Assembly: GCA_035999335.1 (NCBI GenBank)
Contig: DASYGV010000094.1
Span: forward strand, 21,652-85,651
Reading direction: 5' to 3'
Source of the DNA: Thermoanaerobaculia bacterium
GTDB taxonomy: Bacteria; Acidobacteriota; Thermoanaerobaculia; Gp7-AA8
Length of the DNA stretch: 64,000 nt
Position numbers and translations under genes: made by a program. Positions 9,635 to 60,885 of this stretch are shown here, piece by piece (the stretch's first letter is position 1; the number at the start of each line of letters is the position of its first letter). Under the pieces are notes generated by a model that was not told the origin of the DNA, did no database searches, and saw only the letters and a program-made list of their open reading frames with translations.

Positions 9635-9655
9635 AGCTGCGCCCTACGTCTTTCG

Positions 9656-46762: not shown

Positions 46763-49399
46763 TCAGCGTCCACCTCGCACGTTTCGGAACGACAAAATCC
46801 CGTTTTCTGGCGATACCGGATCGTTGTCGAGCCGGGCGATCTCGTTGGGTTGTAGCGCCGGATCCCCGCCCCCCATCCGCTCGAGCCGCACGACGTGCAC
46901 CTCGGCCACGCCGTCGACGGCCATGACCGCGGCGATGATGCGGCTGACGTAGACGGACTCGCCGAAGAGGAGCTTGTCGGGATGGAAGAACTTTTTCAGC
47001 GCGTCCTTGACCGCGGCGAGGACGTGCGCGCGGAGGTACTTCGGTTTCACGCAGAGATCGAGCTCGAGCCGGATCGGAACGGATCGCGCGGGACCGACGC
47101 GCAGGTCGTGACCCATGCGCCGATAGCGCTCGAGATTGTTCGCGACCTCGTCGCGGAGAACGTCGCTCAGTTCGGGCGTGGCGAACGGATCGACGTGCAC
47201 GCCGGCCTCGTACCAGCTTCCGCTCCACACCAGCGACGCGGCCGCGCCCTGCACACGCGGGTTGCGCATGGGGTAGCGAAGATACTGCGCGAGCGTCGCG
47301 TAATCCTCGCCGGTGATGGCGCGCTGAAGGTCTTTGCGGAACGCCATCGGCGCGAGCATCTTCACCTCCGACACCGGCTCGGGATCGACGGCGCCGGTGG
47401 ACGGCAGCGGATTGCGCACTTTCGCGATGAGGTCGTTTTTCCCCGCGCGGAAGATGATGTGCACGATCGATTCGGCGCCGACGAGTCCCATGCGACCGTT
47501 GCCGTAGCGGTACGTCGCTTCGAACTTCATCCCGACGTCGACAGTGCGGCCGGCGTCGCCGTCGCCGAAGCGAAGATGTGCCGCGCCGTCGTCGTCGATC
47601 TCCGCGACGAAGTGCGGATCGTCGCCGTAGCTGTCGAGGAGATCGGGCTGAGGCAGCCAGGTGATGTGCGGATCGCCTCCGTGGATCGGCGGCGCCTCGC
47701 TCTCGAGCGTTGCCGCCGGCAACGCGGACCGCGGATGCTGTTTGAGCAAGACTGTCGCGGGCGCGTCCTTCATAAAGGGATGGTTCAACGGCTGCGCGAA
47801 TGTGAGCGGCGCGGTCTTCAGCCGCGGACGATAGCGTCCCGCAAGGAATGCGATCTCGGAGAGATCGTCTTCTCCTTCGCACACTTCGTTCACCGGCTGC
47901 TCGGGAACGGGATCGAGCTCTTCGCCGAAGATCGTGAGGCCGTGATCGACGAGGAGGATGTTCCCGCGCGCGACGGCGAGCGGCTCGACGTAATCGCATT
48001 GCGGCGCGGTGCCGATCGCGGAGACGCAGAGCATGAACGGCATCGCGTCCTCGCGCGACCACTCGACCTCGACGACCGGCTGCTCGGGGTCCGGTAGCCG
48101 GTCGATCGATCTCGTGATCTTCGTGATGCGCACGACGTGACGATGCGTGCGGTCGGCGTCGGGTGAAGGTAAGGGTTGATCGAGCGTCGCGGTACCCGCG
48201 CAGGCGAGCTCCTCGAAGAGGAGGAAATCGCCGACGGCGAGGTCGTCGAGCACGCGCGGGCGGTCGGGCGGGGGTGGGGGCGGGGGGCAGTTCTCGTCGT
48301 CTAGGAGTGCGGTGGCGATAGCCGCCGCTCTGGTAGGGTGGGTGGGCGGCGCTGCGGACGTACCAGAGCGGCGACTCGCCGTCGCCGCACTCCTAGATTC
48401 CACCTCCACCGGGTCCTCTTCGATGAACGCATCCACGAGCGTCGCGCGCGTCGCTCCCTTCGGGATGCAGCACTCCTGATTGCCCCAGGTGTAGATGCGG
48501 ATCTCGTTGTGCGCGAGGCGGATCTTCATCGACTTGCGCGCGTCCAGCGGCTCGAACGCGAGCCATCCCGAGGCCTTCTCCACCTCGTGCATCTCGAGCA
48601 CGGTTTCGGTCACGATTTCCGAGTAGCGGGTCACGAAGAAGATCTCGTCCAGCGGCAAGTCGCCGTTGGCCGCGGCCTGGAGGAAGAGGAACGCGCGAGC
48701 GTTGCAGCCGTCGTGCATCGGGTAGTCGACGAGCCGCGCGTGACGACGCACGGAAATGCGCTGGCGCGCGGTGTCGAGATACGCCTCGGTCGCGACCGCG
48801 TCCTGGTAGTAGCTGAGGTAATCGCCGACGTACGCGAGCAGCTCGACGATCGCGATGCCGACGTCGGGCACGTGGCGTTCGCGCCAGTCCGGCATCAGCA
48901 GCGCGAGACGGTCGAGGATGAGCTGCCGGAACGTCGCGTAGTCTTTCGCGAGGTAACTGATCGCGGGCCGTGCATAGTCCGGCGGCGGACAGGCGTCGTC
49001 CTGCTTGCAGTCGATCTCCGCGGGGCAGTCGATCTTGAACGAAAAGTCGAGGCACCGGTAGCGCGGATCGAGCGACGGCACGTCGACGAAGCAGAGCGTG
49101 TACGTCGAGAAGTCGCCCTCGCGATCGAGCTCGATGCCGAGGCAGTCCTGTTCGTAGGTGTCGTCGGTGTCGTGGGGATCGATGTCGATCGCCTTGATGT
49201 CCGTGATGCGACGGCCGCCGCGGATCTCGATGTGCCGCAGCGCGGCATCCTCGTCCTTCTGCAGAAACTCCGGAGGGATCCCGGTGAGGAAGTGGACGCA
49301 GAGATGCTTGCCGGTCACGTCGACGTAGTCGACGCCGTTCTTGCCGCGATCGCGAATGAGCTGGCGGCGCGACTCGTCGCGGCAGGTGAGATCGCTCAT
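46763..49399 (-). CDS. Baseplate J-like protein, paralog 1 (Afp11/Pvc11 equivalent), carrying an in-frame repeat insertion
   Basis: ISYLAKDYATFRQLILDRLALLMPDWRERHVPDVGIAIVELLAYVGDYLSYYQDAVATEAYLDTA is the gpJ N-domain. The C-terminal block is ITGEDYATLAQYL...VYVSRIIAAVMAVDGV. The ATG at 49399 overlaps the gp25-like stop. Confidence 0.8.
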   Translation of the reverse strand: MSDLTCRDESRRQLIRDRGKNGVDYVDVTGKHLCVHFLTGIPPEFLQKDEDAALRHIEIRGGRRITDIKAIDIDPHDTDDTYEQDCLGIELDREGDFSTYTLCFVDVPSLDPRYRCLDFSFKIDCPAEIDCKQDDACPPPDYARPAISYLAKDYATFRQLILDRLALLMPDWRERHVPDVGIAIVELLAYVGDYLSYYQDAVATEAYLDTARQRISVRRHARLVDYPMHDGCNARAFLFLQAAANGDLPLDEIFFVTRYSEIVTETVLEMHEVEKASGWLAFEPLDARKSMKIRLAHNEIRIYTWGNQECCIPKGATRATLVDAFIEEDPVEVESRSAATASRRSGTSAAPPTHPTRAAAIATALLDDENCPPPPPPPDRPRVLDDLAVGDFLLFEELACAGTATLDQPLPSPDADRTHRHVVRITKITRSIDRLPDPEQPVVEVEWSREDAMPFMLCVSAIGTAPQCDYVEPLAVARGNILLVDHGLTIFGEELDPVPEQPVNEVCEGEDDLSEIAFLAGRYRPRLKTAPLTFAQPLNHPFMKDAPATVLLKQHPRSALPAATLESEAPPIHGGDPHITWLPQPDLLDSYGDDPHFVAEIDDDGAAHLRFGDGDAGRTVDVGMKFEATYRYGNGRMGLVGAESIVHIIFRAGKNDLIAKVRNPLPSTGAVDPEPVSEVKMLAPMAFRKDLQRAITGEDYATLAQYLRYPMRNPRVQGAAASLVWSGSWYEAGVHVDPFATPELSDVLRDEVANNLERYRRMGHDLRVGPARSVPIRLELDLCVKPKYLRAHVLAAVKDALKKFFHPDKLLFGESVYVSRIIAAVMAVDGVAEVHVVRLERMGGGDPALQPNEIARLDNDPVSPENGILSFRNVRGGR
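48301..48396. repeat. 96-bp palindromic element CTAGGAGTGCGG...CCGCACTCCTAG inside the baseplate J coding sequence
   Basis: About 85% identical to the intergenic copy at 51772-51868. The 96 bp equal 32 codons and read as SRSAATASRRSGTSAAPPTHPTRAAAIATALL on the minus strand with no stop. Confidence 0.85.
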
Positions 49400-49755
49400 G
49401 CGACCCTCCTCTCGAACGTGTCGGTGCGCACTTCCCCGGTGCGCTTGAGCGCGTATTTGATCGTGATGCGCAGGGTCGAGTCTTCCGACGTCACATCGAG
49501 TGCGAGCAGATCGAGGACGTCGCCGAGGTATTGCTGGATTGCCGCGCGCATCGTGAATTGCAGCGCGGCCGCGAGCTCCGGACTGTTCGGCGCGAAGATG
49601 AGCTGCATCAGGCCGCTGCCGAATTCGGGACGGTTCACGCGCTCGCCCGCGTTCGTGAAGAGGAGCTGCTCGAGCATGTCCCTCACGTGCGCGGCGTCAT
49701 TGCATTCGGCCGTGCGTCCGCGGGTGTCGATGTGGAATGGGAAGTCGATGTTCAT
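49396..49755 (-). CDS. GPW/gp25-family baseplate wedge protein (Afp9 equivalent)
   Basis: 119 aa. FPFHIDTRGRTA...VRDMLEQLLFTNAGERVNRPEFGSGL fits the gp25 lysozyme-fold family pattern. Confidence 0.8.
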   Translation of the reverse strand: MNIDFPFHIDTRGRTAECNDAAHVRDMLEQLLFTNAGERVNRPEFGSGLMQLIFAPNSPELAAALQFTMRAAIQQYLGDVLDLLALDVTSEDSTLRITIKYALKRTGEVRTDTFERRVA

Positions 49756-49776
49756 CGCATCCTCATTGGATATTGA

Positions 49777-50094
49777 TCACTGACCGAGCGCGCGGGTTTG
49801 GCCGGGGATGATGATCAAAGGCACGCCGTTCGGAACCGTGATCGCCTGGCTGTCGGCGAGGATCAACGGCTGCCCGTTCGACAGCACGCGCGTCGAGCCG
49901 GTCATGAACTGCGCGGTGACGCACGGCTGCGGCGACGCGGTCGCGAACGGACATCCGGCGATCACGTACGGCGACGTCATGAGCACGGTCGGCTGGCCCA
50001 TCGCCGTCACGCGCGGGTTGGGCACGGTCGGCATGGCGCGTCCCATGTGCACGCATTGCACGGTGTCGACGGCAGTCACGAGCGGTCCGGGCAT
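49777..50094 (-). CDS. PAAR-like / DUF4280-like spike tip protein (Afp10 equivalent)
   Basis: 105 aa in the position between the spike and gp25 genes. The pattern VQCVHMG...GQP...AGCPF...PC...GSTRVLSNGQPL...GQ resembles DUF4280. Confidence 0.6.
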   Translation of the reverse strand: MPGPLVTAVDTVQCVHMGRAMPTVPNPRVTAMGQPTVLMTSPYVIAGCPFATASPQPCVTAQFMTGSTRVLSNGQPLILADSQAITVPNGVPLIIIPGQTRALGQ

Positions 50095-50107
50095 GGGTCT
50101 CCTTTGA

Positions 50108-50632
50108 TCACACGATCGTCAGTGCGCCGTTGTTGATGGTGACGGTGGGGCCGATCATCGTGATCGATCCCCCCTTGCCGTTGTCGATGTAGATGCCGGT
50201 GTCGTTGACGGTGATGGACGCGCCGGTGAGCGACTTGAGGATGATTCCGCCGGTCGGTCCGGGGAGGTCGCTGATGATCACGCGGTTCTGCAGCGTGGTC
50301 TGCATGACGATGCTGGGGCTGACGGGATTGTTCGTGATCGAAGCCTTGGTCGCGTCGGTCGGCAGTTCGGCCTCGATGCCCCAGAAGCAGCCGCTCCAGA
50401 TCGGCTTGTCGGGATCGCCGCCTTCGAACTCGACCCAGACGCCGGATCCGATCTGAGGCACGAACGAGGTACCCATCAGTTTTCCGGCGAGCGGGTAACA
50501 GGGCATGCACCAGCTCGTGGGCAGCAGCGAAGAGACCGCGGGGACGGACGCGAGGATGCGGCCGATGCCCATCGGGTCGAGGTTGTTCAGCACCGTGCCG
50601 CGGTGCTTGCCAAAGAACTTGTGCACGCTCAT
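50108..50632 (-). CDS. gpV/gp5-type baseplate spike protein (OB-fold plus beta-helix needle)
   Basis: FGKHRGTVLNNLDPMGIGRILASVP...GSGVWVEFEGGDPDKPIWSGCFW is the classic Phage_base_V motif. The C-terminal region has repetitive beta-strands. Confidence 0.85.
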   Translation of the reverse strand: MSVHKFFGKHRGTVLNNLDPMGIGRILASVPAVSSLLPTSWCMPCYPLAGKLMGTSFVPQIGSGVWVEFEGGDPDKPIWSGCFWGIEAELPTDATKASITNNPVSPSIVMQTTLQNRVIISDLPGPTGGIILKSLTGASITVNDTGIYIDNGKGGSITMIGPTVTINNGALTIV

Positions 50633-51759
50633 ACCGGGACCCTCGGTGTAATCGACACGAGACCGTTGCGGACGAGCGAGAAGTTCTGTTTGTACTCGCC
50701 CCGCTTGATGGTGTGGGTGACGCTCTTGACGAAGTAGAGACCGTCGAACGCCGGGCCTGCGCCGCGTACGCCGACGAGCTTGCGCGCCTTGAGCACGCGA
50801 CCGTATCGCGCGACGTCGAGCGTGCCGCTCGCGGACGCGGCGTCGGCGCTCTGCGACGCGCGCGCGAGCGCCGCGAGGATCGCCTGCGCGGGATTGCGGC
50901 GCGCGGAGTCGCGGTCGATCTCGATGTTCTTCGGGATCGGCGGCACGAGTCCGAGGGGAGGTGAGAGCGGGTTGACGTTCGGGATCGGGATGGGGATGCC
51001 GACCTTCAGCTCCTTCGGAAAGATCATCACGATCGGCAGCGTCGCGTCCTCGGCGTCGAAGTTGAAGCTCATCGACTCGACGTTCGTCTCCGCGTCCATG
51101 TTCGTGTTCAGCGCCGGCTGCGGCACGCCGATGCGGATCGACGGCCCCCAGTACGCGACGCTCTGCAGCGGCAACGGACCGGGATCGACGTAGAACTCGT
51201 AGCCGGAGAGCTCGGCGAGGTATTTGATGTAGTCGAGGTCCGTTCCTTGCTGCCGCGGGATCTCCTCGGTGGGGATGGGAACGTCGGGGATGATCGCGGG
51301 AAGGACGATCGGCGTGACGCCGAAGATCATGTACTTCGCGAGCATCGCCATCACGCGCACGTTCGCGGGCATGGCCGGGTAGGGAAGACCGTCGAGCGGG
51401 AGATAGCTCATCAGCTTCGAAAGGTCTTCGCCGGTAACGGTGAGCGTCGACTGGCTGCCGCCGTCCCCGCCGCCGACTTGCTGATGCGTGATGACGCCGT
51501 CCATCAGCACGTCCGGCATTCCGTTGATGATCACGAGGATGACGACGCGCATGATCGGCAACTGCGATCCGCCGCCGAGGAGGAAGAGCGTATGCAGCGG
51601 AGATTTCGTGGAGAGCGTGAACGAGAGTTGAAACACGCTCGCGCCCTGCGTGTTGCTGGTGACGCTGACCGAGGTGAGAGCCTCCAGTACCGCGCGCGGC
51701 ACGGGAACCGGCACCCCAGGGCCGATCATGAGCTGGAGGTAGAAGGGAGGATTAGGCAT
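50629..51759 (-). CDS. gpD-like (late control D / VgrG N-terminal-like) baseplate hub protein
   Basis: 376 aa. The C-terminal GLYFVKSVTHTIKRGEYKQNFSLVRNG matches the gpD family ending. It sits directly upstream of, and overlaps, the gpV-like gene. Confidence 0.7.
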   Translation of the reverse strand: MPNPPFYLQLMIGPGVPVPVPRAVLEALTSVSVTSNTQGASVFQLSFTLSTKSPLHTLFLLGGGSQLPIMRVVILVIINGMPDVLMDGVITHQQVGGGDGGSQSTLTVTGEDLSKLMSYLPLDGLPYPAMPANVRVMAMLAKYMIFGVTPIVLPAIIPDVPIPTEEIPRQQGTDLDYIKYLAELSGYEFYVDPGPLPLQSVAYWGPSIRIGVPQPALNTNMDAETNVESMSFNFDAEDATLPIVMIFPKELKVGIPIPIPNVNPLSPPLGLVPPIPKNIEIDRDSARRNPAQAILAALARASQSADAASASGTLDVARYGRVLKARKLVGVRGAGPAFDGLYFVKSVTHTIKRGEYKQNFSLVRNGLVSITPRVPV

Positions 51760-51771
51760 GGGGTGCCCCTT

Positions 51772-51868
51772 CTAGGAGTGCGGCGGCGTCGAGCCACCGC
51801 TCTGGTAGGGTGGGTGGTCGGCGCTCCGGACGTACCAGAGCGGTGGCTCGACGCCACCGCACTCCTAG
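51772..51868. repeat. 97-bp palindromic element CTAGGAGTGCGG...CCGCACTCCTAG (intergenic copy)
   Basis: Lies between the LysM-like gene stop and the gpD-like gene start. It shares the central ctggtagggtgggtgg..cggcgc..cggacgtaccag core with 48301-48396. Confidence 0.85.
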
Positions 51869-51869
51869 A

Positions 51870-52208
51870 CTAAACATTCACTCCCTCCGGTAACGCGATC
51901 GCGAGCCTTCGCCCGATCGTCTCCGTCAATTCGTCCGGTCGCATCGCGCGGTTCGCGTCGGCGATGCGCCAGAAGAGCTCCGGATCGCCGAGGTAGCGAG
52001 CGGCGATGTGGTCGAGGCGCTCGCCCTGCATGACCATGTGCTCGCCGATGATCGACAGGCGCTCCGGCAGCGGCACGAATCGGCGGCGCACGTAAGCGTG
52101 GGTCTCGCCGTCGATCTCGATCTTCGCGATCTCGAGTCCGGCGTAGCGGCTGGTCGGACCGAACGGCGACAGCGGAATGACGAATTGCAGCGCGAGCACG
52201 TCGCTCAT
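51870..52208 (-). CDS. LysM-like / tail protein X-like small protein
   Basis: HMVMQGERLDHIAARYLGDPELFWRIADANRAMRPDELTETIGRRLAIALP fits the LysM/gpX pattern. 112 aa. It overlaps the upstream gene by 4 nt. Confidence 0.65.
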   Translation of the reverse strand: MSDVLALQFVIPLSPFGPTSRYAGLEIAKIEIDGETHAYVRRRFVPLPERLSIIGEHMVMQGERLDHIAARYLGDPELFWRIADANRAMRPDELTETIGRRLAIALPEGVNV

Positions 52209-52855
52209 GGGATCGCTCCTACTCCGATGTCTTTCAGCGCGCCGGACGGCGGGATCTTCGCGAAGGTCTCCTTGACGCGCTGATAGGCGAGATAGATCGA
52301 GCTGCCGCGGTGATCGAAGCCGAGGTCGGTGACGCTCAGTACGCGCATGCCGAGGCTCACTTTTGCGCGGATGGGATTGAGCTTCGTGTCGAACGCCTCC
52401 TCGGTGATCGAGAAGTCGGTGATGCGCACCGGCACGATGCGCGACGCGCTCCAGACGAACAGCACGAGCGGCTGTTCCATCGGCAGGATCTCGAGCACGC
52501 CGCTCGCGGCGAGCGCGTGATTCGAGAGGAGTTGCGTCGTCGTCGGATAGAGGATCATCTCCAACGCGGAGAGCTCGGGGAAGATGCCGGACTGCAGCAC
52601 CGTCGCCCCGGGCTTCGCGACTTCGAGTTGATCGGTCGCGTCGATCTCCGCGTCGATCTTCAGCGTCTCGACCGCGGGTCCCTTGAGGCGCAGCACTTCC
52701 GAGCGATCGCCGGATTCGCCTCCGGTGGCCTGCACCGCCAGCGTGCGCGCGAGCGAGTCGGGTGTGTACTGCATGACGATCACGCGCGCGATGTTCGACG
52801 TGAGCGGATCGAGCAGCACGAGGCCGGCCTTGAGCGTGGAAGGAGTAATGGTCAT
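52205..52855 (-). CDS. CIS tube-fold protein (tube initiator, Afp7/Pvc7 N-domain-like)
   Basis: LKAGLVLLDP...VIVMQYTPDSLARTL and LVLFVWSASRIVPVRITDFSITEEAFDTKLNPIRAKVSLGMRVL fit the contractile-injection tube-protein pattern (xFxFNPxxL ... PVxIxSLxIxExxF). Confidence 0.65.
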   Translation of the reverse strand: MTITPSTLKAGLVLLDPLTSNIARVIVMQYTPDSLARTLAVQATGGESGDRSEVLRLKGPAVETLKIDAEIDATDQLEVAKPGATVLQSGIFPELSALEMILYPTTTQLLSNHALAASGVLEILPMEQPLVLFVWSASRIVPVRITDFSITEEAFDTKLNPIRAKVSLGMRVLSVTDLGFDHRGSSIYLAYQRVKETFAKIPPSGALKDIGVGAIP

Positions 52856-52862
52856 CGGCGCC

Positions 52863-54302
52863 TCACTTGATCTCCTCGCAGAGCGTCACTGGCATGTCGA
52901 ACTTCTTCAGCGTCTCCGGTTGGATCTTCTGGGGCCCGGCGCAGTCGGTCCGCTTCGAGGAGAAGAGCTGGGCCTCCTTGGTGTACTTCGCCCGGGCGGC
53001 CGTGTACTCGCTCCATCGCGCCAGGAAATCCTTGTCGAGGGTGCCGGTCTGTCCGTCGAACTGCGGAACGGGATGCGTGCGCACGTACTCGATCAGATCG
53101 AGTCCGTGTTGACCCTCATGGAAGCGCGTGGAGGTCGTGCCGGCGAACTTGTCCTCGGGTGTGGTGCCGCGGCCGTAGCCGGCCGGATCGCTCGGCCCCC
53201 CGCCCGGACCGTAGACGGTCTTGATGAAGACCGTCGTGCGGGGTGGCGTAACGGTGAAGCTCTGGACGATGTTGGTGTTCGTATCGATCGTGTGCTCGAG
53301 CTGCGAGTCGACGAACTTGATGCCGGTGTACGCGTGATTGCGGTAGTTCTCGTCCTTCGAATACTCATCGGGGTCGACGCGAACGTCCGTGCCGCCGATC
53401 TGGAACGCGGCCGAGCCGCTCGGCTCGACCGTTGCCGTGACCGGAATGGGCGTCGTGATGCCCTGCAGCTGCACGATGCGTTGGATCTGCTTCTGCACTT
53501 TCGGATCGACGGCGCTCCGGACGTAGTCCTGCAGTTCGTCCGGTGAAAGCGATCGCAGACGCTCCATGAGCGCGGCGCTGCTGAAGTCGGCGTCGGTGAG
53601 CGTGAGGGCCTCGACTTCACGGCGGTTCGCGCCGCTGAAGTTGTCCCAAAGCCGATCGCGCCCGATCGCGGCAACGATGTCCATCCGCTCGGGCGACCTT
53701 CGCAACAGCGTGTTGATCGAGCGCTCGTCGAGGAACGTCGTCCAGCCGTGCAGCATGTCCTCGATGAGCCAGACCTTCGTGTCCTTGTCGAAAGGCGTGT
53801 CGAACTCTTTCTCGCGCGAGACGCACGCGCGGGCCATGTTGTCGCTGAAGAGACTCTTCTGCGGTCCCTTTCTCTCCTTCATGCCGTCGACGTATTTCTT
53901 CAGGTCCTCGAAGGGAAAGGCCTCCAGTCCGAAGAGGCGTGGAACGAACAGGACGACGTCGAGGAACGTGCTCCACGCGGAGAGTTGGATCTGCGGCCGC
54001 TGCTCGACGACGTGTTGCAGTTCGTGATCGAGCAGCGCCATGCCGTGCGCCGTGGACGGCGCGTACATCCCGCGCCCGAACGCGATGTCGCTGCCGAACG
54101 TCCACGCGCGCGCGTCGAAGGATTCCGCCGAGCGTGCTGCGTGCTCATCGTCGTGCACGCGCACGCGGCTGAAGTCGTGCTGGAAGCGGGACTCGAATCG
54201 CGCGCGCACCGGTGCATCGAGCGGCTTGCCGGGCGAGCGGAGCACGTCACTGGCGCTCCACGGTGCCGCGGAAGGCCGTTGCCGTTGCGCGAACGCGCTC
54301 AT
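52863..54302 (-). CDS. DUF4157 (HExxH) protein with a C-terminal domain carrying a second HExxH; putative eCIS cargo
   Basis: Start is the ATG at 54302, overlapping the upstream TGA. GKPLDAPVRARFESRFQHDFSRVRVHDDEHAARSAESFDARAWTFGSDIAFGRGMYAPSTAHGMALLDHELQHVVEQ is a canonical DUF4157. The C-terminal domain has FHEGQHGLD. The track ORF start at 55007 is a spurious Arg-rich extension. Confidence 0.8.
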   Translation of the reverse strand: MSAFAQRQRPSAAPWSASDVLRSPGKPLDAPVRARFESRFQHDFSRVRVHDDEHAARSAESFDARAWTFGSDIAFGRGMYAPSTAHGMALLDHELQHVVEQRPQIQLSAWSTFLDVVLFVPRLFGLEAFPFEDLKKYVDGMKERKGPQKSLFSDNMARACVSREKEFDTPFDKDTKVWLIEDMLHGWTTFLDERSINTLLRRSPERMDIVAAIGRDRLWDNFSGANRREVEALTLTDADFSSAALMERLRSLSPDELQDYVRSAVDPKVQKQIQRIVQLQGITTPIPVTATVEPSGSAAFQIGGTDVRVDPDEYSKDENYRNHAYTGIKFVDSQLEHTIDTNTNIVQSFTVTPPRTTVFIKTVYGPGGGPSDPAGYGRGTTPEDKFAGTTSTRFHEGQHGLDLIEYVRTHPVPQFDGQTGTLDKDFLARWSEYTAARAKYTKEAQLFSSKRTDCAGPQKIQPETLKKFDMPVTLCEEIK

Positions 54303-54886
54303 GCGTGGCCTCCTGCGAACCGCACGATCAGAATCGCGAGCGCGCTCAGCGCGCAGATCCACTGCGCCTCGGAGACGCCGAGCCAGCGCCGGCGCTCGTC
54401 GTCGCGGAAGTATTCGAGCGTGAACCGCGCGATTGCGTACGCGATGACGTAGAACGCGAAACCGTAGATCGCCGTTAAGGCGGCGATGACGAACAGCGTC
54501 GCCGATTCGACGTATTGCACGCGCACGCGTCCGACGCGTCCGTGACAACAACCCGCGCTCGCGCAACCGATGCGCCCGATCGCCTGCGCGATCGCGAGCG
54601 CGAGCGCGAGCAGATCGAGCGCGGAGGGAAGCATCACCATCGTCGCTGCGACGGTCGCGAGCTGATAGTGCAGGAACGAGAACGACTCGACGCCGAACAG
54701 CACCTTGGTCATCGCCGCGAGGAACAGCGCGACGCACACGGCGAACGCGGCGACCGCGATCCACAACAGCGGCGTGAGTCCCGCGCGCGTGGCGAAGAGC
54801 GTCGTGACCGCGATGCCCGTCACGCTGCCGCCGAGGACGCAGGTGCGGTAGGAGAGCAAGCTCACGCGGGACATGGCGGCGGCCAC
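54299..54886 (-). CDS. Short Lgt-family (prolipoprotein diacylglyceryl transferase-like) membrane protein
   Basis: Five to six TM helices. AIGRIGCASAGCCHGR and LEYFRDDERR resemble the Lgt GR(I/L)GCxxxGCCxG and EFFR motifs. At 195 aa it is shorter than canonical Lgt. The start is ambiguous (54886 or 54874). Confidence 0.6.
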   Translation of the reverse strand: MAAAMSRVSLLSYRTCVLGGSVTGIAVTTLFATRAGLTPLLWIAVAAFAVCVALFLAAMTKVLFGVESFSFLHYQLATVAATMVMLPSALDLLALALAIAQAIGRIGCASAGCCHGRVGRVRVQYVESATLFVIAALTAIYGFAFYVIAYAIARFTLEYFRDDERRRWLGVSEAQWICALSALAILIVRFAGGHA

Positions 54887-57654
54887 TCCTTCTTCTTCTC
54901 TTCGTCCTCGATTTCGCTGTCTTTTTCTTTTTCTTTGTCTTCCTCTGGAGGCTGTGGCACTTTTTCGCCGCGCAGGACCTTCGTTGCCTCGGTGGAGTTG
55001 TTTTCAAACTCCATTTCGGAGTTCCACCCGTGGTACTTCAACGGACCTAGTTCCTTGCAAAGTGCTCCGAGCTTTCCCTGAAAGTGGACGCGCGCGAGCA
55101 AGTCCTCGCCGACGATGATGGCGAGCTCCTGGACCGCGTCGTAAGCCTGCGCGTAGCTGCCGCCGAGGTAGGGCGGCTTCTCTTTTCCCCAATCGCGGCG
55201 CATCACCACGCGGCGCGTGAAGTACTCGGTCAAGCCCTCCTTCGCGAAGTGCTTGAGGTTGTCCGTGTTGGGATGGGCGAGTGCATGCACCATCTCGTGC
55301 AGCATCGTCTCCGGCGAATCGCGCCGCGTCTGGACCGTGATCCTGTTCGTGTCGCGGTCATGGAAACCCTGCACGGTTTCCTCGAACGCGGTGCAGTACT
55401 CGTATCTTTTCTGCAGGGGCACTGATTCGGGTTGGCGGCTCATGCAGTCTTCGTAGACTTCCTTCATCGGATGCGCGGTCTCGACGATCTCTGTTTCTTT
55501 CGCGGGCGCGGCCCGCTCGTCCGTGAAGTACTTCCCGTACACATCGTGAATCCATTGATATGCGGAGCTCCGGCCGCCTTTTCCGCGAAGCTTCTCCGTA
55601 CTCTTTTCGGTCTTTACGTTCGAAGACAGAGTCGTTTCGGGCAAGTCTTCGCCGAACTGCACGACCTCGAACTTTTCGGCCATCGGCTTGCTGCTGTTCT
55701 CGAATTCGGCGTTGAGCTTCTCGAGGTCCGGCCTTTGCGGCGGCTTTTCTTTTTCGGTCGACAGGAACTCGACCGGATAGGCGAGCGGGTATCGGCGCAT
55801 GTAGAACCGCCAGAGCGCCTCTTTTTGGGACGTGAATTTGTCGAGCAGGTCCGCGTGCGGAATGGCGCCTTTCGGGCCGAGGATCAATTCGAGGTCGGGG
55901 CTCTCGGAACGCTCGAGCAGACCGAGGATCTGCACCTGATCATTGTCCTCGGGACCGTTGTCGAGCATCTGCCGGATGAGGATGGTCTTGCGGCGAACGG
56001 TGAGGTAGTAATCGGACTGGCCTTCGCCCCATGCTTCCGAAACGTCGCGCGCGCGCTTCGCGGCCGTGTCCGTCTGCAGCGTTCCCTTGGCCGTGTCGAC
56101 GCCTTGCAGATATTCCTGCATTTCCTCAGGAGTGGAGCTGCAGCTCTGCAAACGCAGGCTCGATTTGAGCCTCGGCATCGCGTTCGCGCGAACGTCGCGC
56201 GCCCAGTGCCGAAGCCTTGGCCAGAGTCCGAGGACCGCATGCACCGCTGCGTCGTCGGCATCGTGCTCGAGTGCCGTCGTCGCCGCGTCACTCTTGGTCA
56301 GGACCTCCGGGGCGCCTTCCTGCTGTGCGACGTGCGCGAGCTCGTGCGCGAGGAGCGCGTCACCGACGAGCGTGCCCGGCGCGTATTCGCCGTTCGCGAA
56401 TGCGATGTCGTTGCCGATCGTGAACGCGCGCGAGCGGATGCGCGCGGCCTCGGACGCCGCGTCCGCGCCGGTGTGGATGCGCACGCCGGAGAAGTCGCGC
56501 CCGAACGCCTGGCCCATGCGCGAGGCGACGCCGGCGTCGAGCGGGCGTCCGGCGCCCGCGTCGAGTGCTACGTTCGTAGCAGGCGCGGGTGCGCCGTCGC
56601 GCGATTTGCGGAAGAGACTTCCGATCGCGCCCTTGATCATGCCTCCGACGCTGATGCGGATCTTGCCGCCGGCGAGGAGCTCCATCAGGTCCGGCGGCAC
56701 GCCGGCGACGCTGCCGGTCCTGGCCCAGATGCGGATCGATTCCGCGAGGCGCTCGGTGATGCGCGGGATGTACGCGCGCGCGTGCCGCACCTGCGCGTCG
56801 GGCTCGATCCAGCGGCGGATGGAGACCTCGAGTTGCCGCGTGCTCATCGAACGGATGCGCGGGCGCCATTGCTCGAGGAGCGGGCAACCGTCCGTGGATC
56901 GTCCGAGGTTGCCGATCTCCTCGCGCGAGGTCTCGCAGATCGCCGCGTCGAGCAACGCCACGAATTCCGAGCGCCGCATCTGGCCCGCGGCGGGCGAAGC
57001 GGAGTCTTCGACGATCAGGCGATGCGCCTCTTCCTCGCCGGTCGCGGGCTCTTCGTCTTCGCGCTTGCGCCGCACGAGACGCTCGGCGACCGGCGCGATC
57101 GCAGGCGGCGGCGCGAACGCGGGACCCTGCGCGACCACCAGGTCGGCGATGCGATCCGCGGCGCGTTCGTGAGCGTCGTCCGCGGGACCGACGCCGCTCG
57201 GCAGCGCGGTCCCGCTGCGCTGTTGCATGACGTGCGCGAGCTCGTGCGCGAGGAGGCGCCGGCCGCTGGTCGTGTGCGGCGCAAAACGGCCGGCGCCGAA
57301 GACGATGTGTGTGCCGGACGTGTACGCTGCGGCGTTGATCTCTTTCGCCGATTCCGCGGCGTGCGTGTCGGTGTGGACGCGAACGTCCGCGAGGCTGCGG
57401 CCGAAGCGGCTCTCCATCGACGCGCGCGTCTCGGCGTCGAGCGGATGTCCCGCGGATCCGAGGATGTTGCCGACGCTGCGCGGAACCTCGGTGTCCGTTT
57501 CGCCGAGGGCGTGGCGCTGGACTTTCTTTTTCTTCTTCTCGTCCGCGCACGGGCCGCACGATCCGCCGCATCCGCACTTGCGCTGCACGACGATCGGCGC
57601 GCGGCGTTTCACGTCGGAGTCTGGGGTGCGGAGGGCGTGCTGTTTCTCTTGCAT
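54862..57654 (-). CDS. Double-DUF4157 protein with a C-terminal gluzincin-like domain; putative eCIS toxin cargo
   Basis: The N-terminus is QHALRTPDSD...[15 protein letters not shown]. The first DUF4157 is GHPLDAETRASMESRFGRSLADVRVHTD...[12 protein letters not shown]. The second is GRPLDAGVASRMGQAFGRDFSGVRIHTG...[12 protein letters not shown]. The C-terminal domain has MLHEMVHALAH followed by KEGLTEYF, then a Lys/Glu-rich tail. Confidence 0.8.
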   Translation of the reverse strand: MQEKQHALRTPDSDVKRRAPIVVQRKCGCGGSCGPCADEKKKKKVQRHALGETDTEVPRSVGNILGSAGHPLDAETRASMESRFGRSLADVRVHTDTHAAESAKEINAAAYTSGTHIVFGAGRFAPHTTSGRRLLAHELAHVMQQRSGTALPSGVGPADDAHERAADRIADLVVAQGPAFAPPPAIAPVAERLVRRKREDEEPATGEEEAHRLIVEDSASPAAGQMRRSEFVALLDAAICETSREEIGNLGRSTDGCPLLEQWRPRIRSMSTRQLEVSIRRWIEPDAQVRHARAYIPRITERLAESIRIWARTGSVAGVPPDLMELLAGGKIRISVGGMIKGAIGSLFRKSRDGAPAPATNVALDAGAGRPLDAGVASRMGQAFGRDFSGVRIHTGADAASEAARIRSRAFTIGNDIAFANGEYAPGTLVGDALLAHELAHVAQQEGAPEVLTKSDAATTALEHDADDAAVHAVLGLWPRLRHWARDVRANAMPRLKSSLRLQSCSSTPEEMQEYLQGVDTAKGTLQTDTAAKRARDVSEAWGEGQSDYYLTVRRKTILIRQMLDNGPEDNDQVQILGLLERSESPDLELILGPKGAIPHADLLDKFTSQKEALWRFYMRRYPLAYPVEFLSTEKEKPPQRPDLEKLNAEFENSSKPMAEKFEVVQFGEDLPETTLSSNVKTEKSTEKLRGKGGRSSAYQWIHDVYGKYFTDERAAPAKETEIVETAHPMKEVYEDCMSRQPESVPLQKRYEYCTAFEETVQGFHDRDTNRITVQTRRDSPETMLHEMVHALAHPNTDNLKHFAKEGLTEYFTRRVVMRRDWGKEKPPYLGGSYAQAYDAVQELAIIVGEDLLARVHFQGKLGALCKELGPLKYHGWNSEMEFENNSTEATKVLRGEKVPQPPEEDKEKEKDSEIEDEEKKKEWPPPCPA

Positions 57655-57663
57655 CGTTCGCCC

Positions 57664-59295
57664 TCAGGAAGCGGGGATGAGCAGCCGTTTGCCGATCGGC
57701 AGCAACGTGTCGGGAGGAAGTCCGGGATTGGCGCGGCGGAGCGACGACAGCGGGATCTCCCACATCTTCGCGATCTCCCACAGCGTCTCGTCCTTGATGA
57801 CCTCGTGGTAGAAGACGTTGCGGATGATGACGAAGGAGTCCGGCTCCTCGTCGACGCTGTGGTGGCGCTCTCCTTCCCCGCGGAAGATTTGATCGAGGAT
57901 GTTCGCCTCGGCGATGCCGCAGCGGCGTGCGATCGACTTGAGCGTCTCGCCTTTCTTGATGTCGTAGTACGAGCTGAAAGCCGAATCGATCATGCCGGGC
58001 GCATCGATCGGCTCGACGCCAGCCTCGCCTTTGCGGATGCCGAGGCTGTTGCGCTTCGTCGAATGCTCGCGGCGGATGCGATTCTCGACGTCGACGGCCG
58101 ACTCCTTCCCCTTCGGCGTCTGCGTGTGACGGCTCGCGAAGAACGTATCGAACGCGTGCTCGGTCATCACGTGGCCGCAGAGCTCGTGCGCGAAGATCAG
58201 CCACGGCGGATCGCGAAGGATCTGCGAGCGTCCGCTGCCGGAGAGCGGACTCGTGGCCGCGGCCCCTTCGATCTTGTCGTGCTCGCGTCCGGAGACGCCG
58301 ATGTGCGTTTCGGTTCGTGCGCCGCGCGGCCCGAGGGTCATGCCTTGGCCGCGGTCTTCGGTGCCGGACACGTTGATCGTCTCGGTCTTCCCGGCCTCCT
58401 CTCCCGGCGCTGTGAACGAATCGCCGGTGTGAAGGTGGACATCGGGCGCGCCGTCCGCGGTGATGTCGCAGAGGCATTTGCAGGAGACCGGTTTGCCGCT
58501 GCGGCGGAACGAAGTGCGCTTCATCTCGTCGCGGCAGAAGGCCTCGCGGTTCGGCGACGAGAGGACGCCGCTCGCGGAGTCGATCTTCCAGCCGCCGCCG
58601 GGGCACAACGTGTCGATCCAGGTCTGCGCGAGCTGCGCGTTCGTGAGAACAGGCAGCGCGGGATCGCGGCCGGCCGGCTGGTTGGGCGCGTCCTTTCCCG
58701 CGTCTGCGACGGTCATCTTGCGCTGCACGCGGCCGGCGTCTCCGCCCTGCTGCCCGACGTGTGCGAGCTCGTGCGCGAGAAGACGCCGTCCCGCTTCCGT
58801 GTGCGGCGCGTATTCGCCGTGATTGAAGACGATGTGCGAGCCGACGGTGTACGCGCGCGCAGTTACCGCACGGGCCGACTCCGCGGCTTCGGCATCGTCG
58901 TGCACGCGAATGGCGGCGAGTGACCGGGGGGCCGGCGCCTCGCCGGCCGTACCGCCGGCCCCCGGCCTGCGAGGCGCCGGCGCGACGGCCGCCGAGGCGG
59001 CGGCACCCCAGTTGTCCGCTTCCTGCTCGAATGCATCGCCAACCTCGCCGACGGCGAGCTTTTGCGGTCCAACCGACGGGACGCGCGTGAAGTCGTGCGC
59101 GAACCGCGGCTCGAAGAACGCACGCGTGTCGGAGTCGAGCGGACGTCCCGGCGTCGCGAGCACCCGCCGCACGGGCGCTGTCGCTTCGCCGCGGCAGGAG
59201 CGACACGCTCCGCCGCAACCGCACTTGCGTTGCACGGTCAGACCGGTGCTTCGGTCGGAGTCAGAAGTGCGGCGGGCGTGCTGATGCTCGTTCAT
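57664..59295 (-). CDS. DUF4157 / HExxGH-domain / double-LysM protein, tandem paralog A
   Basis: The N-terminus is QHARRTSDSD...[15 protein letters not shown]. Next comes [23 protein letters not shown], then [16 protein letters not shown]...[12 protein letters not shown]. The middle domain has FAHELCGHV and VENRIRREH. Two C-terminal LysM-like repeats are YDIKKGETLKSIARRCGI and HEVIKDETLWEIAKMWEI. Confidence 0.8.
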   Translation of the reverse strand: MNEHQHARRTSDSDRSTGLTVQRKCGCGGACRSCRGEATAPVRRVLATPGRPLDSDTRAFFEPRFAHDFTRVPSVGPQKLAVGEVGDAFEQEADNWGAAASAAVAPAPRRPGAGGTAGEAPAPRSLAAIRVHDDAEAAESARAVTARAYTVGSHIVFNHGEYAPHTEAGRRLLAHELAHVGQQGGDAGRVQRKMTVADAGKDAPNQPAGRDPALPVLTNAQLAQTWIDTLCPGGGWKIDSASGVLSSPNREAFCRDEMKRTSFRRSGKPVSCKCLCDITADGAPDVHLHTGDSFTAPGEEAGKTETINVSGTEDRGQGMTLGPRGARTETHIGVSGREHDKIEGAAATSPLSGSGRSQILRDPPWLIFAHELCGHVMTEHAFDTFFASRHTQTPKGKESAVDVENRIRREHSTKRNSLGIRKGEAGVEPIDAPGMIDSAFSSYYDIKKGETLKSIARRCGIAEANILDQIFRGEGERHHSVDEEPDSFVIIRNVFYHEVIKDETLWEIAKMWEIPLSSLRRANPGLPPDTLLPIGKRLLIPAS

Positions 59296-59304
59296 CGTTC
59301 GTCC

Positions 59305-60885
59305 TCAGGAAGCGGGGATGATCAGCCGCGCGCCGTTGGGCGCCGCGCCTGTCGCGGGAAGTGTCGGGTTCGCACGGCGGAGTGACGCGAGCGGGATCCC
59401 CCACGTTTTGGCGATGTCCTCGACCGTCTCGCCGCTCAGGACGTCGTGGTAGAAGACGCCCCGGATGAAGAGAACTTCGTTTTTCGGAATCGCGGCATCA
59501 GCGTTCTTGAAGCGGTCGCCTTCCCCGCGAAAGATGTCCCACGTGATGCGGAACGTCGCAATGCCGAAGCGCGCGGCCACGGTGCGCAGCGTGTCGCCGG
59601 CCAGCGGCGTGACGTACGAGCCGCGGATGACGATGCTGGCCGACGGGTCGTTCGGGTCTTCGACGCGCGCATCTCCCTGACGGATGCCGAGGTTGTTCGC
59701 CACCGTCGAATGCTCGCGGCGAATCCGGTTCTCGACGTCGACGGCCGACACCGTTCCGCTCGGGGTCTGCACGTGTGATCCCCTGCCGAATGCGCTGTTC
59801 GCGCGAGGCCCGACGACGTGGCCGCAGACCTCGTGCGCGAAGATGATCCACGGCGGGTCCTGCAGCAGTTGTCCTCGGCCGCTCCCACCAGCGGGTGCCG
59901 TCGCGCCCGCGCCGCGCACACCCCACCCCGCGCGCCCGGAGATGCCGACGTGCGTTTCCGTGCGCTTCCCCTCGGGATCGAGCGTCGCGCCCTGACCCTC
60001 CTTCGTCACATCGTGCTTCTCGGTATTCGTCCTGTCCTTGTCCGGCGCCTCGAAGACGTCTCCGGTGTGCAGCCAGACCGACGGCGAGCCGGGTGCGGTG
60101 ATGTCGCAGAGACACTTGCACGACACCGGATGCTTGCTGCCCGCGTAGCCGGGCGTCGCCGGAGCGGTCCCGTCGGTCGTCGGGCCGCCTCCGCAGAACG
60201 CGGCCCGGTTCGCAATCGAGAGAACACCCAAGCCCGGGTCCACGGTCCATCCGTGCGATCCGCAGAGCGAGTCGATCCAGCTCTGTACGAGCTGCGCGTT
60301 CGTGAGCTTCGGTTGACTCTGGGAGAACGTCGCCGGGTCGAAGACGCCTAGCGATCGTTGCAGCGTTCCAACATTCTGTTGACCGACGTGCGCGAGCTCG
60401 TGCGCGAGAAGACGACGTCCCGCTTCCGTGTGCGGCGCGTATTCGCCCTGATTGAAGACGATGTGCGAGCCGACGGTGTACGCGCGTGCGGTCACCGCGC
60501 GCGCCGACTCCGCGGCTTCCGCATCGTCGTGCACGCGAATGGCGGCGAGCGACCGGGGGGCCGGCGCCTCGCCGGCCGTACCGCCGGCCCCCGGCCGGCG
60601 AGGCGCCGGCGCGACGGCCGCCGAGGCGGCGGCACCCCAGCGGTCCGCTTCCTGCTCGAACGCGTTGCCTGCCTCACCGACGGCGAGTTTCTGCGGCGCC
60701 TGCGTCGCGGCGACGCGCGTGAAGTCGTGGCCGAAGCGCGGCTCGAAGAACGCGCGCGACGCGGAATCGAGCGGACGTCCCGGCGTTGCGAGCACACGCC
60801 TCACGGATGGCGGCGCATCGTTGCCGCAGGAATGACACTTGCCGCCGCAGCCGCATTTGCGCTGAAGCGTGGCCGCGGCCATCAT
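59305..60885 (-). CDS. DUF4157 / HExxGH-domain / double-LysM protein, tandem paralog B
   Basis: Same architecture as paralog A: [68 protein letters not shown] and two LysM-like repeats. The ATG at 60885 overlaps the upstream TGA. Confidence 0.8.

Follow-up and report, generated by a model that had tools for sequence, protein, structure and literature searches.

A minimal Lgt-like membrane protein encoded in contractile injection system operons and its possible role in cargo lipidation

Lgt, the phosphatidylglycerol:prolipoprotein diacylglyceryl transferase that gives bacterial lipoproteins their lipid anchor (PDB 5AZB/5AZC for the E. coli enzyme), is viewed as a housekeeping enzyme that faces outward and serves one purpose, and the presence of a gene for an Lgt-like protein among the cargo genes of a contractile injection system (CIS) operon raises the question of what such a protein would do there. 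The gene in question lies in the window (the whole stretch of 64,000 nucleotides analysed here, from a Thermoanaerobaculia bacterium), and a preliminary description of this DNA had offered three roles for its product, namely an immunity factor against a cargo, a lipid-modifying enzyme acting on the cargo, and a membrane anchor.

Position of the gene and its CIS context

The gene occupies positions 54299..54886 on the (-) strand and encodes a minimal, eCIS-linked protein with seven transmembrane (TM) helices, as judged from the ORF list, the Pfam LGT profile, an AF2 model and a Foldseek search. The preliminary description gave an ORF of 195 amino acids, which is indeed present on this strand with a GTG start at 54886. 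The gene is, however, likely to start at the ATG at 54874, which gives 191 amino acids; an AAGGAG sequence lies 11 nt upstream of this ATG, and the 191-residue form is identical to a protein-database entry (P0001). The overlap with the upstream cargo gene and the ATGA coupling to the downstream one were both seen as described: the stop codon of a gene for a 930-residue cargo, at 54862-54864, lies within the Lgt-like gene (an overlap of 13 nt from the ATG or 25 nt from the GTG), and the Lgt-like stop codon at 54299-54301 overlaps the ATG at 54300-54302 of a gene for a 479-residue DUF4157 protein. The 930-residue cargo gene is translationally coupled to the Lgt-like gene.

All the surrounding eCIS genes are on the (-) strand. 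Farthest upstream (60891..63999; tblastn with the annotated gene set of locus L004) are the genes for an 85-residue protein, an AAA+ ATPase (61151-63274) and a Pvc16-type terminator, the last of which is cut by the window end. They are followed by a cargo island, in which the ORF list and Pfam revealed two DUF4157-LysM paralogues of 543 and 526 residues (57664..60885), then the 930-residue cargo (54862..57654), the Lgt-like gene, and the 479-residue DUF4157 cargo (52863..54302), which has neither the middle domain nor the junction Cys of its larger neighbour. Downstream (46763..52855; ORF list and tblastn with the same gene set) lie the genes from the second tube (52205-52855) through a LysM protein (51870-52208), a 376-residue protein, a Phage_base_V spike (50108-50632), a PAAR-like protein (49777-50094) and gp25 (49396-49755) to baseplate J (46763-49399). 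The 930-residue cargo consists of a Cys-knuckle leader, a DUF4157 domain, a carrier middle domain, a second DUF4157 domain, the junction Cys and a gluzincin-like toxin domain, and Pfam eCIS_core matched it twice. In its leader, DUF4157 and variable C-terminal domain, and in its place between the ATPase and baseplate genes, this cargo resembles Cgo1 and Cgo2 of AlgoCIS, where DUF4157 cargo is loaded through a disordered N-terminal sequence (PMC8894135; bioRxiv 10.64898/2026.05.27.728243). In this comparison, which was made with the published descriptions, neither AlgoCIS paper mentions an Lgt-like gene.

To place the gene in a wider context, we surveyed 25 contexts of the family, comprising the window, 17 further type-1 loci, four distant Acidobacteriota copies, and contigs from Actinomycetota, Chloroflexi and unassigned MAGs. 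All 25 were CIS operons, from at least three named phyla, so that the concern that homologues might never be linked to DUF4157 or eCIS genes does not hold. In the window and the 24 other contexts the Lgt-like gene fills a slot between the ATPase and cargo genes and the second tube gene, and the CIS gene order was identical in L001-L004 and L019-L022. In one of these loci (L044), of which 21 kb were available, the gene is present but no cargo with DUF4157, the junction or the middle domain was seen. Pattern-based scans recovered only four loci in genome contigs and six in metagenome contigs. The Supplementary Data of Geller et al. 2021 list LGT twice in eCIS operons, without enrichment, consistent with the earlier remark that Lgt-family enzymes are not known as standard eCIS components. 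In literature searches on Lgt or diacylglyceryl transferase in connection with contractile injection systems we met no description of the family, and a CIS-dedicated family of Lgt-like proteins is thus undescribed in the papers searched.

Lgt fold, conserved residues and predicted orientation

The preliminary description called the protein a polytopic member of the Lgt family, and both profile and fold searches agreed with it. The Pfam LGT profile (PF01790) gave a match of 44.4 bits (gathering score, 24.9; E = 1.7e-11), which extends over residues 83-188 of the protein but only over positions 105-237 of the 240 in the profile; judged by sequence, this match is far beyond chance, and the earlier reservation that there might be no significant LGT profile match can be dropped. 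The AF2 model (pLDDT 88.7) has seven helices, and a Foldseek search against the PDB returned 5azb (E. coli Lgt) at the top, with a probability of 1.00 and a TM-score (query) of 0.68, and nothing else meaningful. A model of a long-form relative (pLDDT 90.8) again matched 5azb. Sequence searches of the PDB, with the single sequence or with a family profile, gave no matches, and only the fold search reached 5azb. The window protein is a true member of the Lgt superfamily with the 7-TM Lgt fold.

Alignment with E. coli Lgt paired Y9 with EcY26, H69 with EcH103, R101 with EcR143, G112 with EcG154, Q120/E123 with Q/E202, Y146 with EcY235, R150 with EcR239, E154 with EcE243 and R157 with EcR246. The two motifs pointed out earlier, GRIGCASAGCCHGR and EYFRDDERR, are both in the protein. 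The former (residues 100-113; 54536..54577, (-) strand) is the Lgt signature motif by alignment with canonical Lgts and 5azb, to which it corresponds in position, and it is invariant across the CIS-linked family. The invariant H69, which corresponds to the His of the HGGL motif, is within FLHYQ (54662..54676, (-) strand), and the series Y146-x3-R150-x3-E154-x2-R157 is followed by the Arg-rich loop RDDERRR (54386..54439, (-) strand). Y9, H69, R101, G112, Y146, R150, E154 and R157 are all invariant in type 1, and the aligned residues remain invariant or nearly so down to approximately 30% identity, except that the equivalent of Y26 is Phe in type 2. The essentiality and roles of these residues have been described for E. 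coli Lgt, in which the conserved His and side-cleft residues bind the peptide substrate (PMC4728403). Since the fold and residues are the same, the chemistry is likely to be the same, i.e. transfer of diacylglycerol from phosphatidylglycerol to a thiol. Note that EcN146 and EcE151 are both replaced by Cys in the signature of the window protein (GRIGCASAGCCHG), and that E151A/Q inactivates the E. coli enzyme (PMC4728403). The GCxxxGCCHG (CxxxxCC) motif is also found in full-length Lgts, and the genome's own housekeeping Lgt likewise has Cys at the N146 position.

[quoted passage not shown] The maximum likelihood tree separated CIS-linked types 1 and 2 together from the canonical Lgts (support 91/93), with type 1 also well supported (98/99). 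The family is large (400 cluster representatives at E <= 1e-30; type 2 counts at least 250 proteins), and most members, again unlike E. coli Lgt, carry an eighth TM helix followed by an alpha/beta C-terminal domain of about 90 residues, together with an Arg-rich N-terminal extension. These long relatives score 61-65 bits against Pfam LGT. Pfam contained nothing for their C-terminal domain (or for the cargo middle domain), for which the fold search of the long form yielded merely generic alpha/beta matches. The short form of the window is nested within the long forms in the tree, indicating that TM8 and the C-terminal domain were lost secondarily, as they also were in two other sub-lineages; the loss in the window form could represent decay. 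One family member (P0101) starts with a cargo-like Cys-knuckle leader.

The distribution of charged residues points to an unusual topology. The number of Lys and Arg residues on the catalytic side and on the other side is 8.7 and 2.2 in type 1 and 18.5 and 1.8 family-wide, against 7.5 and 12.7 in canonical Lgts. This bias is the reverse of that in canonical Lgt, and the K/R-rich cytoplasmic loops of E. coli Lgt are lost, which predicts that the protein has the opposite orientation with its active site facing the cytoplasm. On this prediction, the N-terminus, the signature loop (residues 108-118) and the RDDERRR loop (157-168) would all lie in the cytoplasm. The inverted orientation appears to hold by the positive-inside rule, the only basis of this prediction; the Arg-rich stretch behind the extra TM8 and the Arg-rich N-terminal extension of type 2 are both consistent with it.

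Second copies of Lgt are known in some bacteria, and the Pfam match would also be expected of an ordinary second Lgt in the normal orientation, placed in the operon by chance or serving an exported eCIS accessory protein. However, the canonical lgt (189 bits) sits on another contig of the same genome, and the window protein falls far below the cut-offs of all NCBIfam lgt equivalogs (51.7 bits against 334 for the best; 22.6 against 118.9 for TIGR00544), showing that the window gene is a paralogue distinct from the housekeeping Lgt. The deleted head domain and arms, the reversed charge bias and the CIS slot in 25 of 25 contexts argue in the same direction. A signal-peptide or lipobox substrate is also missing from its surroundings, as no ORF in the 64-kb window has a signal peptide with a lipobox. 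We therefore regard an ordinary second Lgt as barely credible.

The long forms bear on another reading, that of a membrane adaptor or dock: the Lgt-like protein would bring the particle, the ATPase or the cargo of the CIS to the cytoplasmic membrane through protein contacts, with lipid chemistry irrelevant or lost. The precedent is CisA, the bitopic membrane adaptor of the Streptomyces coelicolor CIS, which is likewise a membrane protein of a CIS cluster situated outside the particle, has cytoplasmic parts that may contact CIS components, and is needed for firing (PMC12237407). The Arg-rich extension and C-terminal alpha/beta domain of most members, both predicted to be cytoplasmic, would suit such a dock, as would the leader of P0101 and the presence of the gene in L044 with no DUF4157 cargo in the slot; to this extent the membrane anchor of the preliminary description retains some force. 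On the other hand, the window protein and the two sub-lineages lost the extra domains yet kept an intact 7-TM core, most catalytic residues are invariant at approximately 30% identity, a degree of conservation not called for in a pure scaffold, and CisA is non-enzymatic and shows no kinship in sequence or fold to the polytopic Lgt-like protein. We consider a purely adaptor role rather unlikely.

The cargo carrier and the candidate acceptor

A BLAST comparison of the 930-residue cargo with its orthologues showed that the N-terminal portion of approximately 520 residues is conserved, whereas the C-terminal toxin domain is variable. The conserved portion includes the carrier middle domain (residues 206-365; 56560..57039, (-) strand; tblastn and alignment), which has a Gly-rich amphipathic segment (nt 56605-56670) and whose ..STDGCP.. 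(nt 56875-56901) contains the invariant Cys257. Of the loci examined by tblastn, all 17 with the Lgt-like gene have the middle domain; L040, which has no Lgt-like gene, does not. Of 401 Acidobacteriota genomes, 40 have DUF4157; four of these carry the Lgt-like gene, and it is these four alone that have the middle domain. The junction motif MPRLKSSLRLQSC with Cys505 (56140..56178, (-) strand) lies where the carrier gives way to the variable toxin domain. The junction Cys (L-x-L-Q-R/S-C) was counted in 32 of 51 DUF4157 cargos from loci with the Lgt-like gene and in none of the 30 from Lgt-less loci, all 30 of which also lack the middle domain. With R/S at -1 and Q/S at -2, the motif is not a canonical lipobox. 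On this distribution, Cys505 is the best candidate for the acceptor, and the invariant GCP Cys257 is a second candidate. This co-occurrence of the Lgt-like gene with the carrier could also come from shared descent of one CIS lineage and not from functional coupling.

Two other sites had been proposed as acceptors, and the sequences concerned are present as described: the upstream cargo ends in ...WPPPCPA, and three leaders contain QRKCGCGG. The N-terminal CGCGG knuckle was rejected because it is not specific, being present in loci without the Lgt-like gene (L040; P0058/P0059) and missing from an Lgt-linked cargo of L020. The C-terminal Cys was also rejected. All type-A cargos end in Cys-x(1-2)-stop behind a Lys-rich tail, but the same ending occurs in an Lgt-less Kapaibacterium locus and is absent from type-B cargos linked to the Lgt-like gene, indicating that it is a property of the toxin domain and not of the partnership. 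The lipid-modifying enzyme acting on cargo is the best supported of the three roles first offered, with the junction Cys, which co-occurs with the gene, taking the place of the leader and C-terminal sites.

The toxin domain itself bears on the proposal that the Lgt-like protein is an immunity or protection factor against a membrane- or envelope-directed toxin encoded just upstream. Direct coupling behind a toxin-like gene would fit such a factor, since polytopic membrane proteins are common immunity factors, and the arrangement in L002, where two Lgt-like genes each follow a different cargo, would fit as well. However, the Lgt-like gene is kept at 50-70% identity while the toxin domain upstream switches among the unrelated types A, B, C and D, and in L001, L037 and L043 a single Lgt-like gene accompanies several carrier-type cargos (three at most), whose toxin domains differ. 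The gene thus tracks the carrier module and not the toxin domain, which argues against immunity. Moreover, the type-A toxin also occurs in the Kapaibacterium locus, which has no Lgt-like gene, and conservation in the Lgt-like protein is concentrated on the catalytic residues. A search of the other 400 sampled Acidobacteriota genomes did not turn up the type-A domain, so that the phylum offers no control for it. Taken together, an immunity role seems very improbable.

Proposed role and significance

The family accompanies one class of cargo and is almost always translationally coupled to it, suggesting an undescribed lipid modification of that cargo. We propose that the Lgt-like protein is a member of the Lgt family that serves the CIS, is inverted in the membrane, lipidates a Cys of the cargo and so tethers or primes the cargo at the cytoplasmic membrane, a proposal to which we give about an even chance. 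The protein would insert upside-down, with its catalytic cavity opening to the cytoplasmic leaflet, where the cargo, which has no signal peptide, would be located. We infer the activity together with its lipid donor and acceptor: most likely, diacylglycerol would be transferred from phosphatidylglycerol to the cargo Cys, and the lipidated cargo would then be tethered to the membrane, or primed.

This scheme has a parallel in lipoprotein maturation by Lgt and LspA, in that a conserved leader, which closes with a short invariant-Cys motif, precedes a disordered linker and then the functional domain, with a putative dedicated peptidase adjoining the site. The carrier would correspond to the leader and LQRC to the lipobox, and the neighbouring DUF4157 domain, with its HExxH motif, may be the processing peptidase. 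Lgt-like lipidation of a non-lipobox Cys in an unusual topology has been proposed for the invariant Cys of MYXO-CTERM (PMC11980579). The putative cargo substrate differs in being cytoplasmic, with neither a signal peptide nor a TM helix, and its L-Q-R/S-C motif does not qualify as a lipobox. In a more detailed version, the inverted Lgt-like protein would add diacylglycerol to the junction Cys on the inner side of the membrane and the DUF4157 metallopeptidase domain would cleave off the carrier, leaving a toxin with an N-terminal lipid-modified Cys to be loaded, fired or targeted to membranes; we put this forward tentatively and think it doubtful in full. Note that a lipidated protein within the tube lumen is mechanistically awkward.

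The lipid chemistry might also have no protein acceptor. The Lgt-like protein would then be a release, lysis or lipid-remodelling enzyme of the inner leaflet. By using up phosphatidylglycerol, or with water or a small molecule as the acceptor of diacylglycerol, it would weaken the membrane and so assist the release or firing of particles. Particles of eCIS are thought to leave by lysis (PMC8213781), the phosphatidylglycerol-binding residues are conserved, and L044 has no visible carrier cargo, all of which would be compatible with such an enzyme. It would, however, explain neither the tight coupling to the junction-Cys cargos nor the conservation of the His and the side-cleft residues that bind peptide, and we consider it improbable.

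If the more detailed version is true, it would represent the first case in bacteria of protein S-diacylglycerylation on the cytoplasmic side, and DUF4157 would gain a function. With a flipped Lgt family dedicated to CIS, many CIS loci in soil Acidobacteriota, Chloroflexota and Actinomycetota would gain a hitherto unrecognised accessory component, and a cargo-modifying enzyme with a defined junction motif would be useful in engineering CIS particles for delivery. [quoted passage not shown] A large, flipped sister family of Lgt dedicated to CIS would extend protein lipidation to the bacterial cytoplasm.

The Lgt-like gene and its product

The Lgt-like gene is a real open reading frame on the reverse strand (54299..54886 (-), 195 aa with a GTG start). 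The ATG at 54874 is the more likely start; it gives 191 aa, the length of the database form of the protein (P0001), and AAGGAG lies 11 nt 5' of it. The tight packing reported in the preliminary description agrees with the coordinates: the reading frame overlaps the stop codon (54862-54864) of the 930-aa double-DUF4157 gene, and its own stop shares ATGA (54299-54302) with the start codon of the 479-aa DUF4157 gene. Both Lgt-like motifs quoted there are present in the protein.

The proposed membership of the Lgt family was borne out by both profile and structure. The C-terminal half of the Pfam LGT profile (PF01790) matched above the curated threshold (44.4 versus 24.9 bits, E = 1.7e-11), and the protein was far under the cut-offs of all NCBIfam lgt equivalog models. 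An AlphaFold model from the alignment of 36 close relatives (55-88% identity to the window protein) has seven transmembrane (TM) helices (pLDDT 88.7, pTM 0.84), and E. coli Lgt (5azb) was the one meaningful match to it in PDB, with a probability of 1.00 and a query TM-score of 0.68; sequence-only searches of PDB gave no match for the window protein. The canonical housekeeping Lgt of the same genome, a 270-aa protein (PF01790, 189 bits; 5azb by phmmer, 1e-20), is encoded on another contig (C153, L006 1450-2262 (-)).

We aligned the Lgt-like family with full-length Lgts, including this canonical one, and found a compact but entire Lgt body. Residues Y9, H69, R101, G112, Y146, R150, E154 and R157 of the window protein correspond to Y26, H103, R143, G154, Y235, R239, E243 and R246 of E. 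coli Lgt, and Q120/E123 to the PTQLYE motif; these E. coli positions are essential or highly conserved (Mao et al., PMC4728403). Unlike E. coli Lgt, the window protein has no periplasmic arms or head domain, and the positions of EcN146 and EcE151 (E. coli numbering) are Cys. The GCxxxGCCHG motif is also present in full-length Lgts. At the EcN146 and EcY26 positions the housekeeping Lgt has Cys and Phe, respectively, and it has GDDYG where E. coli Lgt has GELWG, so that several residues essential in E. coli vary naturally in Acidobacteriota. Most catalytic residues are invariant across the CIS-linked family to about 30% identity, suggesting that transferase activity may be retained.

The genome also gave a third PF01790 match, a weak one (34 bits; contig C184, L008 1360-2019 (-)), in a 219-aa reading frame with no CIS context; it is aligned to just the last ~80 positions of the profile (ARFVEEHYRGEPQ). 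One relative, P0009 (186 aa, 67% identity to the window protein), has an Arg-rich, out-of-frame-like middle after GCCS before the family sequence resumes; a frameshift or faulty assembly is the probable cause.

Distribution and phylogeny of the CIS-linked family

The linkage to eCIS genes holds in other genomes, where the Lgt-like gene has a fixed slot. In every recovered locus of the close relatives (type 1; L001-L005, L009-L022, L041), the order is terminator, AAA+ ATPase, small protein, DUF4157 cargo genes, Lgt-like gene and sometimes another cargo, followed by second tube, LysM protein, 376-aa protein, spike, PAAR, gp25 and baseplate J. The window is arranged likewise. An overlap of 1 to 32 nt between the Lgt-like gene and the end of a large cargo gene is seen in most of these loci.

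Of 401 Acidobacteriota genomes scanned, only four, from four different families, matched the compact profile over its full length at more than 120 bits, and the copies of the other three likewise lie among DUF4157 cargo genes in CIS loci. All other matches reached at most 88 bits and almost always began at about position 65-90 of the profile, leaving its N-terminal part uncovered, which is what canonical Lgts should give. When 1.84 billion cluster representatives were searched exhaustively with a profile, 400 proteins came out at E <= 1e-30. The best 150 of these have 315-450 aa; in most, the alignment runs the full length of the profile, through a C-terminal domain that the window protein does not have. 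A word-based profile search with the more distant type-2 forms added at least 250 proteins, some named as from Actinomycetota, Chloroflexi and Thermoanaerobaculia metagenome-assembled genomes, and in all three type-2 loci picked by phylum (Actinomycetota, Chloroflexi and unassigned) and by the length of their contigs the gene occupies the same slot. The family is dedicated to CIS operons in every locus examined. The CIS literature that we searched does not mention it. Geller et al., surveying eCIS operons, recorded Pfam LGT in them just twice and saw no enrichment (odds ratio 0.35); any enrichment of the CIS-linked subfamily is probably hidden by housekeeping Lgt, which is ubiquitous.

In the maximum-likelihood tree, the CIS-linked forms make up one clade apart from canonical Lgts (support 91/93), and the short form of the window is nested within long forms, so that TM8 and the C-terminal alpha/beta domain were lost secondarily, at least three times. 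The window holds a secondarily minimised seven-TM form. The extra domains of the long forms would suit a CisA-like membrane dock, but they were repeatedly lost, and we regard this role as unlikely.

Some type-2 proteins (L037 8858-10819, P0232, P0278, P0291) have a CxxCxxCC domain, putatively zinc- or iron-chelating (PF03692), fused to their N-terminus, a fusion that recurs in several clusters. Another, P0101 (449 aa, from a 41-kb metagenomic contig), starts with MCDCGQHVIGGEQCEACREK, which resembles the Cys-knuckle leader of DUF4157 cargos joined directly to the predicted cytoplasmic N-terminus.

Predicted orientation in the membrane

E. coli Lgt has a strongly positive cytoplasmic face, with its catalytic residues in the periplasmic half (PMC4728403). 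Using helices from the model, we counted Lys and Arg on the catalytic side (N-terminus and loops 2, 4 and 6; for the family-wide set also the post-TM8 stretch) and on the other side (loops 1, 3 and 5 plus the C-tail or loop 7). The counts were 7.5 and 12.7 in canonical Lgts, 8.7 and 2.2 in 37 close family members, and 18.5 and 1.8 in 22 members of both subtypes. The K/R-rich cytoplasmic loops of canonical Lgt are erased in the family, and the positive residues left are active-site arginines. By the positive-inside rule, the family is strongly predicted to insert with its Lgt active site towards the cytoplasm. In the relatives, an Arg-rich N-terminal extension and the R-rich post-TM8 stretch are both on the catalytic side, and the alpha/beta domain comes after the latter; these placements are consistent with a reversed orientation. 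An ordinary second Lgt facing outward, as the canonical enzyme does, is highly improbable.

Cargo architecture and candidate acceptor cysteines

The N-terminal ~520 aa is conserved among the upstream cargos (leader, DUF4157, ~160-aa middle domain, second DUF4157 and junction helix), and the C-terminal domains that follow are unrelated: type A (gluzincin-like, HEMVH...EGLTE), type B (HEYAH...YAWFA), the Cys-rich type C, a 3D-domain type, and others in Chloroflexi and Actinomycetota. The middle domain was present in all 17 Lgt-like loci tested and absent from a Kapaibacterium CIS locus without the gene; among the 401 genomes, 40 of which have DUF4157, it was found at E < 1e-10 in exactly the four with the Lgt-like gene. 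It holds a second invariant Cys (Cys257, within (S/T)-T-x-G-C-P). The gene is coupled to the carrier-type cargo, independent of toxin type. The preliminary description had also considered immunity, but the toxin domain varies while the Lgt-like gene stays, and one gene accompanies up to three carrier-type cargos, the reverse of what toxin-specific immunity predicts; we consider this role very unlikely.

The tightest correlate of the gene is a Cys at the junction after the last DUF4157 (ALE-DAD...LW...(M)P-L-(K/R)-S-(G/S)-L-x-(L/I)-(Q/S)-(R/S)-C), directly followed by a linker rich in Pro, Ser, Ala and Lys and then by the variable toxin domain; in the window it is Cys505 (nt 56140-56142 (-)) in MPRLKSSLRLQSC. 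It occurred in 30/30 middle-domain cargos and in 32 of all 51 DUF4157 cargos from 20 Lgt-like loci, and in none of 30 DUF4157 cargos from 17 loci without the gene, co-occurrence figures that are confounded by the common descent of one CIS lineage. In the latter cargos, the module often closes with a similar hydrophobic-Q-R motif, the next residue not being Cys.

DUF4157 modules in general close with hydrophobic-Q-R (LQRS, VQRK, LQRQ and others; L045-L060, L040, window 57664-60885), about 20-70 residues past HExxH and often after an E-x-EADR-A helix; it also precedes the N-terminal Cys knuckle and may mark a boundary or a processing site common to cargos of this class. The ~480-530-aa DUF4157 cargos directly downstream of the Lgt-like gene (window 52863-54302 (-); L002 10015-12564; L004 10894-12405; L011 10864-12453; L041 ~9115-10620) have a hydrophobic, TM-like stretch (for example, FWGAVAAIAGGVVALAYGLY) directly after the DUF4157 module (..PRLQG). 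Close to their C-terminus is a conserved (T/A)-(I/L)-C, and they may themselves be membrane-inserted.

Two acceptor sites put forward earlier are real but are not specific partners of the gene. The CGCGG leader occurs in loci without it and is missing from one Lgt-linked cargo; the penultimate Cys is in all type-A toxin domains, including one from a locus without the gene, and not in type-B Lgt-linked cargos. The window contains no reading frame with a signal peptide and lipobox. All type-A domains end in a Lys/Glu-rich tail and Cys-x(1-2)-stop (CPA, CT, CK, CQ, CE, CS; window 54865-54897 (-); L002, L004, L011-L013, L017, L019, L021, L022, L040), a pattern that recalls polybasic-plus-Cys membrane-targeting tails; the ending is also found in the Kapaibacterium/Bacteroidota homologue, from a locus without the gene, the tail being otherwise variable.

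Of the earlier proposals, a lipid-modifying enzyme acting on the cargo is still favoured, without those two sites. A cytoplasm-facing Lgt-like enzyme would transfer lipid to a cargo cysteine, the presumed acceptor. Among the candidates we favour the junction Cys. In these cargos a conserved leader leads through L-x-x-C and a disordered linker to the functional domain, as in a lipoprotein precursor, and DUF4157, predicted to be an HExxH peptidase domain, is ~60 residues upstream of this Cys. A full lipoprotein-like maturation scheme for the carrier-type cargo is offered only tentatively. The main counter-observation is L044, which has the Lgt-like gene although the 21 kb visible contain no cargo with DUF4157, the junction or the middle domain. 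A role in lipid remodelling or release seems improbable.

In L044 itself, P0285 (10001-11491, 496 aa) has a long Ala/Pro/Gly-rich N-terminal extension with GHDFG and GGGQPLE, which resemble remnants of a DUF4157 domain start; the slot holds no separate DUF4157 cargo.

Beyond family membership and genomic association, function is what we infer. The present analysis contributes the correlate of the carrier module and junction Cys, with negative controls (0/30 cargos in loci without the gene), the rejection of leader and C-terminal Cys as specific partners, and the recognition of a secondarily minimised form in the window. Taken whole, the best explanation, to which we give an about even chance, is a CIS-dedicated Lgt-like enzyme that would act from the cytoplasmic side on a cargo Cys.
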